NCBI GenBank assembly: GCA_023129115.1
Contig: JAGMCR010000015.1
Location: 6,983 to 70,982, forward strand
Reading direction: 5' to 3'
Origin: Candidatus Iainarchaeum sp.
Lineage (GTDB): Archaea > B1Sed10-29 > WALL01
DNA length: 64,000 nucleotides
Shown: positions 42,154 to 47,995 of the stretch, one piece after another
Layout: each line of letters begins with the position of its first letter
Position numbering within the stretch: the first letter of the stretch is position 1
Position numbers and translations under genes: made by a program
Notes under the pieces: model-generated
Seen by the model: the letters and a program-made list of their open reading frames with translations, nothing else
Database searches by the model: none
Told to the model about the DNA's origin: nothing

Positions 42154-43302
42154 ATGCCCACCTGGAGCCATAGTAGAATCTCGACGTACGAGAATTGCCC
42201 CCTGAAATTTTATTACACTTACGTCGAGAAGCCGGACGTGGAGGAGGTATTGGGTGACAATATCGCTCTTGTGCTGGGCAAGAGCTGTCACGAGGCGCTC
42301 GAGTGGCTGTACAAAGAGCTGTCCTTCGGCCGGGAGCCGTCCCTGGACGACGCCATCGACTATTATACCCAATCCTGGGGCAAGATGTGGACTCCGGACG
42401 TGATTATCCCCCGTTTTGACGAAAAAACGTGGAAAAAGCTTGGCATCCGGTACCTCGGCGACTTTTACAACCGGCACTCGCCGTTTATCGAGGACCGTAC
42501 CGTGGCCCTCGAGAGAATGGTTCGCCTTAAAATCGGCAAGTACTCGTTAATCGGGTATATTGACCGTGTTGCCGAGGCTTCTCCGGGCCACTACAAAATC
42601 ATTGATTACAAGACGACTAAGAGGCTTCAGGGGCAGGACTGGTTTGACAGTGACCGCCAGCTCGCTCTCTACGAAATTGGCTTGCGCCAGATGTTCAGGG
42701 ACGTGGAGGAGGTGGACCTCGTGTGGCACATGCTTCACTTCAACAAGGAGATTGTTTCTCGCCGGACTCCGGGGCAGCTGGAGCAGTTGAAGAGTGACAC
42801 GATTGAATTGATTAGTACTATTGAGGCTGCTGAAGAGTATCCCGCCAAAGTGTGTGGGCTTTGCCCGTGGTGCAGCTTCCAAGAAATCTGTCCCAAAAAA
42901 AAGCACGAGCGCGCCACCACGCGCATGACCGTCCGCGAGTTCCGCAGGGACGAGGGCGTTCGCGTGGCGAACAAGTTTGTGCAGACGAAGCTGAAGCTGG
43001 ACGAGTGGGGGATAAAGAACGCGGACGCGCGGAAGGACGTGCTGGCGTATTCGAAGCAGCACGACACCAGCAAAGTCATTGGGTCGAAGGCGGCTGTGGC
43101 CGTCTCGACGATGAAGAGGGTATCGTTCGACCCCAAAGTGGAGAAATTGTTGAAGAAAGAGGGGTTGTGGGAGAAGTACTCGAAGTTGGATTCTGCTGCT
43201 CTTGTGCGTGAGCTTGAGGGCCTTGACCCGAAAATCAGGGGAAAGCTTGTCAAGCTTGAGGAGACTAAAGAGTCTAAAGCTGTGCGTGTTGTGAAGAAGT
43301 GA
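42154..43302 (+). CDS. RecB/AddB-family PD-(D/E)XK nuclease with putative Fe-S Cys set
   Basis: WSHSRISTYENCP, LGKSCH, GYIDRV, IIDYKT, QLALY, CPWC..QEICP. Confidence 0.9.
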   Translation: MPTWSHSRISTYENCPLKFYYTYVEKPDVEEVLGDNIALVLGKSCHEALEWLYKELSFGREPSLDDAIDYYTQSWGKMWTPDVIIPRFDEKTWKKLGIRYLGDFYNRHSPFIEDRTVALERMVRLKIGKYSLIGYIDRVAEASPGHYKIIDYKTTKRLQGQDWFDSDRQLALYEIGLRQMFRDVEEVDLVWHMLHFNKEIVSRRTPGQLEQLKSDTIELISTIEAAEEYPAKVCGLCPWCSFQEICPKKKHERATTRMTVREFRRDEGVRVANKFVQTKLKLDEWGIKNADARKDVLAYSKQHDTSKVIGSKAAVAVSTMKRVSFDPKVEKLLKKEGLWEKYSKLDSAALVRELEGLDPKIRGKLVKLEETKESKAVRVVKK

Positions 43303-43351
43303 AACGCTTTTATTCTTTGTCTTCGTTTTGTTTTGTGTGGAGTTGAGGTGA

Positions 43352-44851
43352 ATGCCTAGGAAGAAACACACGGCCGTGCGCCACCCGGACATTGAGTTGG
43401 GGGTCAAGAGGGTTACTGACGGGAGCATCGAAAAGCTCACTGATGCGAGGGGGGAGCCTTTCACTAGGTCCGAACGCATCAAATTGATGGCGGGCGACCG
43501 CAAGGTCTTCGGGAAGGGCATTGAGGAATTGTTTGACAAGGCAATCAGGGAACTGAAAAAGATTCCTAAGGAAAAGATGGAGCGGCGGAAGCTGATTTAC
43601 GAGGGCTTGCTCGGCGAGGTGGAGTCCAAGCTCAAGATTGGTGACTCCGACCGGTTTTTGGCGCACGAAATGATGGTCCAGACTGATTTGGGCAGCATGG
43701 TCAAGGCGATTGCGCAGGGGTCGGACATTAATTTGGACACTGTTGACACCCAAGCAGTGGACAAGGCGGTTGGTACCGCGAGGGACATGTATTACGGCAC
43801 GAATAAGACAAAGGACGAGGCCTTGACGAAGAGCCTTGAGGTCTTGATGGCGGACGAGGGCGTCTCGAAGCAGTTCGATGGGGAGTGGGAGGTGGCCGCG
43901 CACTTGTCGCCCAAGGACCGGGCAAGGTTTTTGATGGCTGTGATGCACAAGGACGATTACTTGATACACCAATTAATCCAGCAGAGGGACGAGAACAAGG
44001 AAATGACCAAGGACCAGCTCCAAAGCATGCTGGATAATTTTGGTTTAACTGAAAAAGATTTTTCGAAGAAAGAGTTGGAGGAGTTGGGGGTTACTATTCA
44101 CATGGGCAAGAACAAAGAGATTTTGTTGGACATGGCCAAGATTCTTATCATGGCTGACCTGGACCCCCACAAGCTTTTGGAGTTGCCCAAAGAAGAGAAG
44201 CGCACTGCTGTGCTCAGCATTTTTTCTCATGAAGCCCTTGACCCCTTGAAGGTGCTGCAGAAGCTTCCTTCTGTCGCGAGGGGCTTGGCGTTGAGGTCTC
44301 TTGAGGGCATAAGCAAAAATGCTAAGGAGGGGGACAAGGAGGCCAAAGACATGCATAGGTCCAGCCTTATGCTGCACAGCCTTAACATACACAACCCGAG
44401 GGAGCGGGAGGCCTTGGCCGAGATTGTGGCGCTTGCTGACGATAGTGCTGAGTGGGACAAAGAGCTGTCCGCCAGCATAATCAAGAGGCATGGGCTGGAG
44501 AAAGAAGCCGAGTTCAACAGGTACATGGTGAACCTACGGGACATTGTCGACCAGCCGGCCCACTTCAACCGCTTTTTGGAGCTGGCGTGGGACTTGGATG
44601 ACAAGGACAAAGTTGGGGAGATTGGCTTTGACGCGTCGAACCCTGACCACAAAAAGGCGTTCATGAAGATTAGGGGCGAGCTCTTGAAGATAAAGCTTGG
44701 CAGTGGGGGCCTCAAGGACAATAACGCCGAGGCCGTGGAAAAGCGGGTGCTGACGGAAATGGGCTTGCTCGAAGAAGTCACGAAAAGGCGCAAAAAGAAA
44801 GAAAAAAGCGAGAAACGCGTCAAAGAGCGGTGGAAAAACATTTACGCTTGA
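43352..44851 (+). CDS. Hypothetical helical protein with basic termini
   Basis: 499-aa ORF with GAGGTG RBS; its stop lies within a relic repeat. Confidence 0.75.
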   Translation: MPRKKHTAVRHPDIELGVKRVTDGSIEKLTDARGEPFTRSERIKLMAGDRKVFGKGIEELFDKAIRELKKIPKEKMERRKLIYEGLLGEVESKLKIGDSDRFLAHEMMVQTDLGSMVKAIAQGSDINLDTVDTQAVDKAVGTARDMYYGTNKTKDEALTKSLEVLMADEGVSKQFDGEWEVAAHLSPKDRARFLMAVMHKDDYLIHQLIQQRDENKEMTKDQLQSMLDNFGLTEKDFSKKELEELGVTIHMGKNKEILLDMAKILIMADLDPHKLLELPKEEKRTAVLSIFSHEALDPLKVLQKLPSVARGLALRSLEGISKNAKEGDKEAKDMHRSSLMLHSLNIHNPREREALAEIVALADDSAEWDKELSASIIKRHGLEKEAEFNRYMVNLRDIVDQPAHFNRFLELAWDLDDKDKVGEIGFDASNPDHKKAFMKIRGELLKIKLGSGGLKDNNAEAVEKRVLTEMGLLEEVTKRRKKKEKSEKRVKERWKNIYA

Positions 44852-44894
44852 GGAGACTAAGGAGTCTAAAGCTGTGCGTGTTGTGAAGAAGTAG
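44846..44894 (+). pseudogene. Relic of the 3' end of the RecB-like gene (LEETKESKAVRVVKK*)
   Basis: Near-identical DNA to 43254-43302. Confidence 0.9.
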
Positions 44895-44903
44895 GTGATG
44901 TTA

Positions 44904-46913: not shown

Positions 46914-46956
46914 AATTTGTTAATTCATATTGGCTATAAAAGGTTTTTGCCAAGAA

Positions 46957-47235
46957 CTAGCTCTTGGCTTTCATCCTCGCCCTAACCACCTTCTTCAGCG
47001 GCTCGACCCCATAGTCATAGATATCGGGGATGTCCAGGTTCACGACTTTGCCATAGAACCGGAAGAAATGCTCCATTATGTACGTCTCGTGCTTTTTCTC
47101 GAACACGTACACCTTGTCGGCCCACTTCAGCGCCGCGTCCGTTAAGTCGTACATGCCGCAGTACTTGCCGCCGTACATCTCGGCCGCCGTGCGGCTCCGG
47201 TTCTCGCCGGCCGTGCAGACGAAGAGGAGGTTCAT
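46957..47235 (-). CDS. Low-molecular-weight phosphotyrosine phosphatase-like protein
   Basis: LLFVCTAGENRS P-loop; WAD.V.VFE..H; LDIPD.Y. Confidence 0.85.
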   Translation of the reverse strand: MNLLFVCTAGENRSRTAAEMYGGKYCGMYDLTDAALKWADKVYVFEKKHETYIMEHFFRFYGKVVNLDIPDIYDYGVEPLKKVVRARMKAKS

Positions 47236-47837
47236 TTTTTCCTCTGGGACAGGGTAAATTTTACATAGTTGTATTCATCTATAACTTTAGCTAGTGGTGT
47301 TTGTTTACTCCGCCATAGCACGCCACCAAACTCCTCTTGCATTTCTTTGAGAAATCCCAAGTAATCATTTGCTGTGGGTTGTGATTTTTTTATTCCATAG
47401 TGTCGCCTGATATTGGTGTCCCACATTACGAAGAGGGCGGGGTTGAATATACTCATAACTTTGGAAGAGCCAGTGTATTTTACTCCCGGAACCTTGGAAA
47501 GCTCTGCATAAATCTTCTTGATATCGGAGCCCAAACCATCATTCTCATCGAGGTTAGCTGTTTGTAATGTTTCTTTTTTGAGTTTCTTGAAAATAGGAAG
47601 ACATGTCTTGATAGCATTTTCGAGTTGACCGAGAGTCTCTTTTTCAGAAGAGAGGTAATGGAACCGCGCTTTATTCCATGTGGCAAGTATCACTATGGCT
47701 GCTTGTAGGGGATAGTCCTCAACTGCCTCACAGGCAACGCAGTAAAAATTGACTCGTCCTTCTCTCTTAGTAAATTTTTTGTGGGCACTTTTTAAGGAAC
47801 CGCTAGTGTGTGGCATAGCCATCCAATACACGTCCAA
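47232..47837 (-). CDS. Hypothetical protein with HhH-like GVKYTGSSKV and WD motifs (possible DNA glycosylase fold)
   Basis: LATWN, VPGVKYTGSSKV...P.LFVMWD. Confidence 0.6.
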   Translation of the reverse strand: MDVYWMAMPHTSGSLKSAHKKFTKREGRVNFYCVACEAVEDYPLQAAIVILATWNKARFHYLSSEKETLGQLENAIKTCLPIFKKLKKETLQTANLDENDGLGSDIKKIYAELSKVPGVKYTGSSKVMSIFNPALFVMWDTNIRRHYGIKKSQPTANDYLGFLKEMQEEFGGVLWRSKQTPLAKVIDEYNYVKFTLSQRKK

Positions 47838-47876
47838 AACACTTAAATATAGCCCCGGGGTAGTTGATATCCACCT

Positions 47877-47995
47877 AGCTAAACGCGGGGGCGTTGGCGA
47901 GGGAGCTTGATGGGCTTGACGAGGGGCTGAGGAAGAAGCTGGAAAAACTTGAGGAGACTAAGGAGAGTAAGGCTGTTAGGGTGGTTAGAAAATGA
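47877..47995 (+). pseudogene. Longer relic of the RecB-like 3' end, preceded by a copy of the anchor promoter
   Basis: LNAGALARELDGLDEGLRKKLEKLEETKESKAVRVVRK*; CCAAAACACTTAAA at 47834 as at 42115. Confidence 0.85.

Follow-up and report, generated by a model that had tools for sequence, protein, structure and literature searches.

Why should the last codons of a single gene recur four times behind it, each copy closing at a stop codon and each separated from the next by other genes? The question is raised by a stretch of 64,000 nucleotides from Candidatus Iainarchaeum sp. (assembly GCA_023129115.1, contig JAGMCR010000015.1, positions 6,983 to 70,982, forward strand), hereafter the window, in which a gene for a Cas4-like PD-(D/E)XK nuclease (42154-43302, forward strand; here called the anchor) is followed by copies of its own 3' end and preceded by copies of its 5' end. 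An earlier note, made from the sequence alone, had drawn attention to this arrangement and interpreted it as an ordered accretion of cargo genes. We find that the four downstream copies are displaced gene ends—the scars of a succession of insertions, four at the least, at the gene's 3' end—and that they are best read as the product of serial homology-anchored insertion, the "sequential displacement" proposed for Rhs and type VI secretion system (T6SS) loci; we put the probability of this reading at about 0.6.

The genome (G000) comprises 1.25 Mb in 19 contigs and is 88.6% complete; the window is positions 6983-70982 of its contig C7. It holds alanyl-tRNA synthetase and archaeal RNase P RNA genes, and since C7 terminates in 23S rRNA the locus is chromosomal.

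Displaced gene ends downstream of the nuclease gene

The last 9-38 codons of the anchor recur four times downstream, all on the same strand and each closing at its own stop codon (TAG, TGA, TAA and TGA, in order), with cargo of 0.5-1.6 kb separating successive copies. The earlier note had placed four copies here, parting cargo genes, and both observations hold; the last copy begins at 47879. We refer to these copies as 3' relics 1 to 4 and to the intervening segments as cassettes.

Relic 1 (44846-44894, forward strand) consists of the last 15 codons and a TAG stop (LEETKESKAVRVVKK) and is of the anchor's own allele type. When the window is compared with itself by blastn, 44846-44892 matches 43254-43300 with 97.9% identity over 47 nt (E 2e-15), and the two have a 32-nt exact run in common; counting the stop, 14 of the 16 codons are identical and two synonymous, and one of 45 sense bases differs in addition to the stop codon. 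Cassette 1, which lies between the anchor and this relic (43303-44845, forward strand, GC 0.52), is a single open reading frame (ORF) of 499 aa at 43352-44851, whose TGA stop (44849-44851) falls inside the relic. It belongs to no known family, having no match in Pfam, NCBIfam or PADLOC; it is present in none of 30 other genomes of the class and finds only itself among 8000 scored candidates drawn from 5.8e9 proteins.

Cassette 2 (44895-45421, forward strand) is one hydrophobic ORF of 174 aa (44895-45419) that begins 1 nt after the stop of relic 1 and likewise has no family match in Pfam, NCBIfam or PADLOC. Relic 2 (45422-45508, or from 45413; forward strand) contains about 28 codons and a TGA stop, ends in KKKLEETKESLSVRVVRK, and is of mixed allele type, carrying SLSV as does the orthologue in G002, a single-cell genome of the same genus. 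It is followed by 14 nt identical to the downstream flank of the anchor (aacgcttttattct), and its blastn match, 45458-45522 with 43252-43316, is 89% identical over 65 nt (E 5e-17). Cassette 3 (45509-46265, forward strand, GC 0.59) is again one ORF without known family (45542-46273, 243 aa), and its TAA stop (46271-46273) lies within relic 3. The relics thus supply the stop codons of the ORFs of cassettes 1 and 3, as the earlier note had pointed out. Relic 3 (46266-46298, forward strand), the shortest copy, consists of the last nine codons (SKAVRVVKK) and a TAA stop; all nine residues and the stop match the anchor with 9 of 27 bases changed, two codons being identical and seven synonymous. Neither tblastn of the genome nor blastn of the window reports it. 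It is of the same allele type as relic 4, to which (47963-47993) it is 90% identical over 31 nt.

Cassette 4 (46299-47878, reverse strand, GC 0.42) has three ORFs (46320-46913, 46957-47235 and 47232-47837), for which a weak match to DUF6308 (E 0.0065) is the only one. Relic 4 (47879-47995, forward strand), of a third allele, holds the last 38 codons, 71% identical to the anchor over 38 aa, and a TGA stop. It is a GC-rich islet (GC 0.53) between low-GC flanks, and its stop overlaps, in the sequence ATGA, the start codon (47992) of a restriction-modification gene, an overlap that the earlier note had also seen. In a tblastn search of the whole genome with the nuclease, relic 4 (47879-47992) was recovered with an E-value of 7.7e-9, relic 1 with 0.004 and relic 2 with 0.006, and no copy of the anchor gene was found on any other contig of G000.

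Allele origin and polarity of the relics

There are three allele types among the four 3' relics: that of the gene itself (relic 1), a mixed type (relic 2), and that of relics 3 and 4. Relic 4, with its 38 codons, has 42 of 114 bases changed relative to the gene, yet 27 of 38 residues are kept and there is no frameshift or stop; by codon, 13 are identical, 15 synonymous and 11 non-synonymous, compared with 13, 13 and 13 between the functional genes of G000 and G002. The nearest copy is therefore nearly identical to the anchor and the distal ones use other codons, just as had been described. Differences of this mostly synonymous kind point to other functional alleles, rather than local decay, as the source of the distal 3' relics. 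They also tell against the earlier suggestion of duplication followed by trimming, since the distal relics (15 synonymous against 11 non-synonymous of 38 codons) compare with the gene as the functional genes of two species compare with each other.

Identity to the gene falls with distance from it, being 0.978, 0.844, 0.667 and 0.632 at 1.6, 2.2, 3.0 and 4.7 kb, respectively (n=4); over the shared last nine codons the values are 1.0, 0.815, 0.667 and 0.593. This monotonic rise in divergence, the check that the earlier note had proposed, fits polar accretion with the newest cargo adjoining the anchor. The note's chronology thus stands on the 3' side and does not extend to the 5' side, where similarity to the gene shows no fall with distance in either G000 or G002 and three of the relics have been copied from one another.

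A mirror array of gene starts upstream

The earlier note had described a mirror pattern, with starts to the left of the gene and ends to the right, and the starts are real. Five copies of the gene's promoter-like region or start lie upstream, all on the forward strand and beginning at codon 1 (one, at 29021, is internally deleted). The relic at 25649-25731 (start 25681) contains 32 nt of promoter-like sequence and the first 16-17 codons, and that at 28160-28257 (start 28192) a promoter-like stretch and the first 17-22 codons. In the deleted copy (29021-29060) the promoter is fused to about codon 7, and it is followed by a 200-nt repeat of 40102-40300 (29034-29225 with 40102-40300, 91.5% identity). 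The copy at 37232-37288 has the first 19 codons with 84% amino acid identity (tblastn E 4e-5) and is cut by a variant of a two-hairpin repeat described below, while that at 40088-40150 (first 17-21 codons) is the nearest to the anchor yet divergent from it. Positions 25649-25728 are 91% identical to 28160-28239 over 80 nt, and the 25681 relic is 92% identical to 40088-40138 over 51 nt. This relic also has 10 of 30 bases changed without altering any of 10 residues, including Ser TCC/AGC and Arg CGC/AGA switches; its first 30 nt match the functional gene of G002 at 27 of 30 positions (counted by eye) and its own anchor at 20 of 30. A Doc/Fic-type toxin ORF (22605-22970) and a YafQ/RelE-type toxin ORF (25755-26027) are present among the 5' cassettes.

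Similar scars at other genes and in related genomes

The first and last 30 residues of 1002 G000 ORFs were compared with the genome, a scan in which many hits come from paralogue families. The scan also turned up nine or more other genes that are accompanied, at 0.05-3.3 kb and on the same strand, by a stub of their own end; these stubs measure 48-105 nt, show 82-95% identity and have a stop or start codon at the outer edge. These genes lie on contigs C5 (20876-22135 and 32927-34621), C19 (64376-65242), C13 (25265-26707 and 42494-42997), C15 (28457-29506 and 52823-53938) and C9 (62222-62971 and 44538-45440, with two stubs each). Their stubs bracket one to four small genes, which, judged from the sequences, include a RelE-type pair, a winged-helix protein like one in the window, an ATPase and a TPR protein. 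Because the same scars occur at no fewer than nine unrelated genes, the process is generic and not driven by the nuclease. The earlier idea that the anchor nuclease may itself take part is not borne out by these genes or by other genes of the DPANN loci considered below; the nuclease gene is a hot spot of the process rather than its agent.

Arrays of stubs recur in relatives. The G002 orthologue of the nuclease is 81% identical (78% for the gene at the nucleotide level) and has eight 5' stubs of 6-28 codons upstream and none downstream. The nuclease gene and 23S rRNA are common to the G000 and G002 contigs, but no cargo flanking the gene is, so that a comparison of neighborhoods, also proposed in the earlier note, finds relics present and cargo wholly replaced. 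The two genes diverge more toward their ends, where identity is 0.75 (5') and 0.55-0.70 (3'), but also in an internal block at 450-700 nt, and because of this block the profile does not single out replacement of an end. A Type IIG restriction-modification gene adjoins the 3' end of the nuclease gene in both genomes, in differing orientations and with 26% identity, and three lineages in all have such a gene there (47992-51405 in the window, forward strand; C6 24061-26943 in G002, reverse strand; 11208-14288 in locus L055), differing in orientation and only distantly related.

Among 80 loci of the nuclease family, each searched with its own protein, terminal stubs are present in five (G002, L036, L048, L068 and L079), or four of 79 if G002 is excluded; a further scan reveals one more stub in L048. 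By comparison, about 4 of 851 other ORFs in the same 79 loci have a stub (in L053, L055, L064 and L087; a reading of the table with tandem paralogues and weak or wrong-side hits excluded), giving a Fisher p of 0.0026 that is indicative only, the genomes being related. Where such stubs occur outside G002, in four lineages, the intervening DNA encodes MNT/HEPN pairs, Fic, Bro-N and NYN proteins. Close relatives of the gene in metagenome contigs amount to one 1280-nt contig (62% identity) with no flanks. All 18 stubs of the nuclease gene—nine in G000, eight in G002 and one promoter-fused—span at most 38 of its 382 codons.

Recombinases, border signals and a two-hairpin repeat

No integrase or integrase remnant was found among the window ORFs scanned, and G000 has no match to Resolvase (serine recombinase) or Y1 transposase. 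Its one Phage_integrase match is a tyrosine recombinase on contig C12. This gene (78360-79529) has its promoter and first ~20 codons duplicated 23 kb downstream on the same strand (78313-78419 with 101417-101523, 96% over 107 nt), and the interval between the duplicates holds further 40-nt repeats and two hairpin copies. There are no inverted repeats at the four cassette borders, the sole pair in 43200-48100 lying inside the cassette 1 ORF, and no motif common to the cargo ends was seen in those compared by eye. The window contains no tRNA gene, and the only one on the G002 contig is a tRNA-Ala in the rRNA operon about 15 kb past the nuclease gene.

The two-hairpin repeat is about 70 nt long and consists of CAGCTKAAACTMAGCTGGCACGTT followed by a GC-rich stem-loop of variable sequence. 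Copies occur in the window at 6943, 21936, 60295, 61597 and 62632; there are 29 in G000 and nine in G002 (C6 8290-21670), and none anywhere in 43200-48100. The repeat usually follows a stop codon and precedes a promoter-like box, 'cttttat'; its first stem shows compensatory changes at three of seven pairs among 14 copies, and it matches no Rfam family at gathering cut-offs. For nine of the 29 G000 copies a direct repeat of the left flank, 15-51 nt long, lies within 200 nt, and some of these repeats resemble tRNA 3' ends. Transposon ends were considered as an identity for the repeat and rejected: G000 has four TnpB-like genes and no Y1 transposase, and none of the TnpB-like genes is near a hairpin copy. 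A second array of stubs accompanies the repeat, in which a 37-nt segment (gttggcagtgcatag...gcatct) stands just before hairpin copies spaced 1.0-2.4 kb apart. Its copies are at 60258-60294, 61560-61596 and about 62600 in the window and at about C7 71950 beyond it, and it matches the C-terminal end of a reverse-strand ORF at C7 71941-72312.

A proposed route of displacement and its alternatives

From the stubs, their allele origin and polarity, their recurrence in relatives and the lack of recombinase or att-like signals we infer the following route. DNA from a related archaeon would bring its own end of the gene together with whatever adjoins it downstream, and would cross over by homology inside the resident gene. 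Its far side would be joined a few codons upstream of the resident stop, through a short-homology or illegitimate joint, or through a single crossover if the incoming molecule were a small circle. The gene would stay whole by virtue of the replacement end, the new cargo would lie directly behind it, and the resident end would be shifted outward as a dead stub together with all older cargo. The same process would operate at the 5' end of the gene and, more rarely, at many other genes. Homology-facilitated illegitimate recombination, in this sense, is the combination of one homologous crossover with one joint at 0-10 nt of microhomology. Donor and recipient would resemble each other in the coding part alone, and the likeness of stub to gene end would for that reason go no further than the stop codon; only short stubs would be seen because long direct repeats would be lost by recombination; and the conservation of the gene, together with its place at the border of a stretch of defence and toxin-antitoxin turnover, would make it a hot spot. 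A circle-mediated (Campbell-type) route would give the same product and would account better for the intact cargo genes and for decayed stubs having been copied. Among the mechanisms that the earlier note had offered, homology-anchored integration of foreign DNA fits best.

Several observations weigh against serial homology-anchored insertion. No donor arrangement was found, and the cassette 1 ORF is without a relative; among the papers listed by a literature search none is, by its title, on such recombination in archaea. In three of three loci viewed elsewhere in the genome (two on C5 and one on C15) the cargo beside the stub is one intact gene, which precise cassette-like insertion predicts better than random illegitimate joints do, though selection could produce the same outcome. 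On the 5' side, five of the eight G002 stubs are joined, at differing codons, to the first base of the two-hairpin repeat, as are three promoter-only remnants in G002, and these joints point to a cassette end of defined structure. The 5' relics at 25681, 28192 and 40088 and the deleted copy at 29021 share derived changes that destroy a conserved Cys, and some of the 5' relics also share flanking sequence; the shared changes indicate that these relics were copied from one another and not each from a separate functional allele. The evidence for allele origin has limits as well. A neutral simulation retained as many residues as are observed in none of 20000 runs for relics 3 and 4 and none of 5000 for the 5' relics, but it treats every change as neutral; and the split of changes by codon position between relic 4 and the gene (11/8/23), in a test of low power for detecting relic decay, is indistinguishable from that of the functional pair (9/10/20) or from a half-neutral mixture. 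Since codon positions cannot separate two functional alleles from one functional and one decaying, the relics with no replacements are the strong cases.

Could the array be the work of the assembler, with variants from mixed strains chained in series? G000 derives from a cold-seep metagenome, the sequencing runs that contain the stretch are cold-seep metagenomes, and the contigs of an independent k=31 assembly break at the 32-nt exact repeat common to the gene end and relic 1, for which reason they leave the order around cassette 1 unfixed. We nevertheless find this scarcely credible, given that the repeats are only 63-98% identical and not exact, that read depth in a candidate source run is flat (17.5 over the gene, 19.4 over cassette 1 and 20.9 from 44863 onward), that copies 2-4 lie within a single 15.4-kb contig of the independent assembly, and that the congener G002, an independently assembled single-cell genome, shows an array of this kind too. 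Local tandem duplication of the gene end or of the whole gene, with trimming, neutral decay and later arrival of cargo, is improbable for different reasons. It would account for the near identity of the nearest copy, for the 5' relics copied from each other and for tandem units of gene end plus hairpin that occur elsewhere in G000, but the distal copies keep the protein through 33-37% base divergence with no frameshift or internal stop, the restriction of every stub to at most 38 of 382 codons is unlike random trimming, and the cargo is wholly different between congeners.

The leading alternative, which we nonetheless consider unlikely, is site-specific accretion, in which integrative elements attach at the last codons of the gene through a recombinase supplied in trans and stack in tandem. 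Direct repeats do bound each cargo block, the one flanking cassette 1 being a near-perfect 47 nt; every repeat closes at the stop codon; the cargo at comparable scars elsewhere consists of intact genes; and the single tyrosine recombinase of G000 has its own promoter and 5' end duplicated 23 kb away. A 266-nt contig from a second sample moreover joins 44744-44861 to 43270-43417, as a circle or a tandem cassette 1 would, but with a 32-nt exact run, k=31 and a depth of about 3x it is equally explained by collapse of the assembly graph; the remaining apparent joints in the same check of public runs are cross-matches among repeats at 25.6-26.6 kb. Against site-specific accretion are the lack of an integrase or remnant among the window ORFs scanned, the variable stub lengths (15, ~28, 9 and 38 codons) with no sharp common core, the absence of inverted repeats at the borders, and the unrelated sequences of the scars at the nine or more other genes, for which one recombinase would need many specificities. 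More doubtful is a recombinase-less, hairpin-led element that inserts with a target duplication of 15-125 nt, its insertions at gene ends alone surviving since the duplication restores the gene, and the 3' stubs being old duplications that have lost their hairpins. The direct repeats flanking 9 of 29 G000 hairpins and the abutment of five of eight G002 stubs and of the 37232 stub in G000 on the first base of the element are what it predicts. Between 43200 and 48100, however, there is no hairpin element, the distal 3' stubs are other alleles and not copies of the resident end, and several of the repeats beside hairpins (on C9, C13 and C1) are tandemly duplicated units of gene end and hairpin, for which slippage or unequal crossing-over is also an explanation. 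A broader conjecture, which we rate only just below site-specific accretion and so as unlikely too, is that DPANN archaea possess a cassette system that restores its target without a recombinase, in the manner of an integron lacking its integrase. Small and often hairpin-led cassettes may dock at the ends of conserved genes or tRNA genes, copying or replacing 15-125 nt, and may move between stubs as small circles; the nuclease gene may be a preferred two-sided platform with the 3' array as its hairpin-less arm, and the nuclease or the host recombination machinery may do the joining on hairpin-ended DNA.

Relation to known systems

The closest parallel to serial homology-anchored insertion is with bacterial toxin loci. 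Sequential displacement by homology-facilitated illegitimate recombination is proposed for T6SS and Rhs arrays by Kirchberger et al. 2017 (PMC5361080), who cite Jackson et al. 2009 and Koskiniemi et al. 2014 for displacement arrays; the general idea is set out in PMC2884548. In the Rhs, contact-dependent inhibition (CDI) and T6SS arrays, incoming DNA swaps the 3' end of a functional, conserved anchor and adds genes, old 3' ends are shifted downstream in age order with their companion genes, and in place of an integrase the proposed route pairs homology at one flank with illegitimate joining at the opposite one. The window has the corresponding parts, namely displaced 3' ends of different alleles behind an intact anchor, with the former downstream gene attached. 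It differs in that the anchor is a DPANN nuclease and not a polymorphic toxin, that the displaced piece is a short tail conserved between alleles and not a variable toxin tip, that the cargo is without family, or of restriction-modification or toxin-antitoxin type, and does not consist of cognate immunity genes, and that the same gene also has a mirror array of displaced 5' ends with promoters. The principle is thus already in print for bacterial toxin loci, and what is new here is the DPANN setting, the non-toxin anchor and the unusually complete two-sided form; among the papers listed by literature searches none describes such stubs for archaeal or housekeeping genes.

Other systems share single features with the locus. 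In Streptococcus thermophilus, integrative and conjugative elements and related cis-mobilizable elements accrete at fda; elements without an integrase of their own pile up at the 3' end of fda in streptococci or at tRNA genes; and Prochlorococcus has tRNA-relic islands, the tycheposons. In these settings, as here, direct repeats of a target 3' end part the cargo blocks, the target is restored and the newest block adjoins the gene; the locus differs in lacking an integrase and a constant core, in its variable repeat length and in the many unrelated genes that are targeted. Common to all four relics are the last nine codons only, with 59-100% identity to the anchor. Integrons, which have reportedly been found in Archaea, likewise stack one-gene cassettes in one direction beside a fixed platform, the newest nearest and the older pushed back, whereas here there is no IntI beside the array, no attI and no attC-type imperfect palindrome for each cassette at the 3' borders, the borders being copies of coding sequence. 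Defence hot spots flanked by core genes and without mobile-element signatures are known in Escherichia coli and Pseudomonas aeruginosa; as at the nuclease gene, a conserved gene borders an exchange of restriction-modification, OLD-type and toxin-antitoxin genes among close relatives, and the locus differs from them in that the exchanges have left scars that can be read in series to either side of the flanking gene.

The genomes of DPANN archaea are tiny and carry few recognizable mobile elements, there is no genetic system for these organisms, and little is known of the routes by which they gain genes. At the locus, nine acquisitions or more around a single conserved gene can be read in order, and in its congener eight more with different cargo, with no integrase seen. 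If serial homology-anchored insertion is correct, ordinary recombination with the DNA of relatives, anchored in conserved genes, can build islands of defence and toxin-antitoxin genes in DPANN archaea. The signature—a same-strand stub of a gene end from another allele, bounded exactly by a start or stop codon—could serve for finding hot spots and dating cargo, and is usable in uncultured genomes.

The nuclease gene and other features of the window

The anchor encodes 382 aa, including a C-terminal extension of about 130 aa; its start at 42154 was picked from an alignment with five orthologues. It matches PF12705 (PDDEXK_1) along the whole profile (1-247 of 247; E 7.4e-29, 101.8 bits against a cut-off of 22). 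Four Cas4-type cysteines, one N-terminal and three C-terminal (Cys15, 237, 240 and 246), are invariant across the five-orthologue alignment, and PADLOC Cas4 models match at E 2e-13 or weaker. The TIGR00372 cas4 equivalog gives 44.2 bits, under its 65-bit cut-off and over residues 111-247 only. The gene is not associated with cas1/cas2 or a CRISPR array, and Cas1 (PF01867) has no match in the 88.6%-complete genome. We call the protein Cas4-like and do not assign it to Cas4.

The family is widespread, with 569 of 601 pattern matches in one-genome-per-species contigs encoding a relative, and patchy in close relatives, 9 of 61 genomes having a match; the relatives that carry the gene are DPANN archaea labelled Woese-, Nano-, Iain-, Aenigm- and Micrarchaeota. 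At 34 other loci its neighbors are mostly housekeeping genes (tRNA synthetases, DNA polymerase B, enolase and ribosomal protein L11), and restriction or toxin-antitoxin-type genes directly adjoin it in six of the 34. An AddAB-like helicase partner was looked for in loci with at least 1.5 kb of downstream sequence and discounted, a UvrD-type helicase lying 3' of the gene in L048 only, in none of 65 other loci, and being absent from this position in G000 and on the G002 contig. Viral donors were also considered and rejected: 40 viral contigs encode distant relatives only (24-34% identity, mostly over residues 2-247), and at that level there is no DNA-level homology to recombine with.

At relic 3 GC content falls to about 0.40, from about 0.53, and it remains low through the end of the window (46300-64000). 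The Type IIG restriction-modification gene (47992-51405, forward strand, GC 0.38), which opens this 18-kb low-GC stretch, is Eco57I/MmeI-like, with matches to Pfam Eco57I (5e-32), N6_Mtase and MmeI domains and to PADLOC REase_MTase_IIG (6.6e-51). The stretch also contains a UDG-superfamily ORF (51957-52730) and an OLD/GajA-like nuclease with ATPase and TOPRIM domains (53049-54905, reverse strand; PADLOC Old 2.6e-26). Upstream of the anchor, a reverse-strand ORF of 463 aa (38697-40088) encodes a long Thr/Pro/Ser/Ala-rich repeat (PTPTPT...). Read depth over this ORF exceeds 400 in all three runs, so the Thr/Pro-rich repeat is common to many other organisms or loci.

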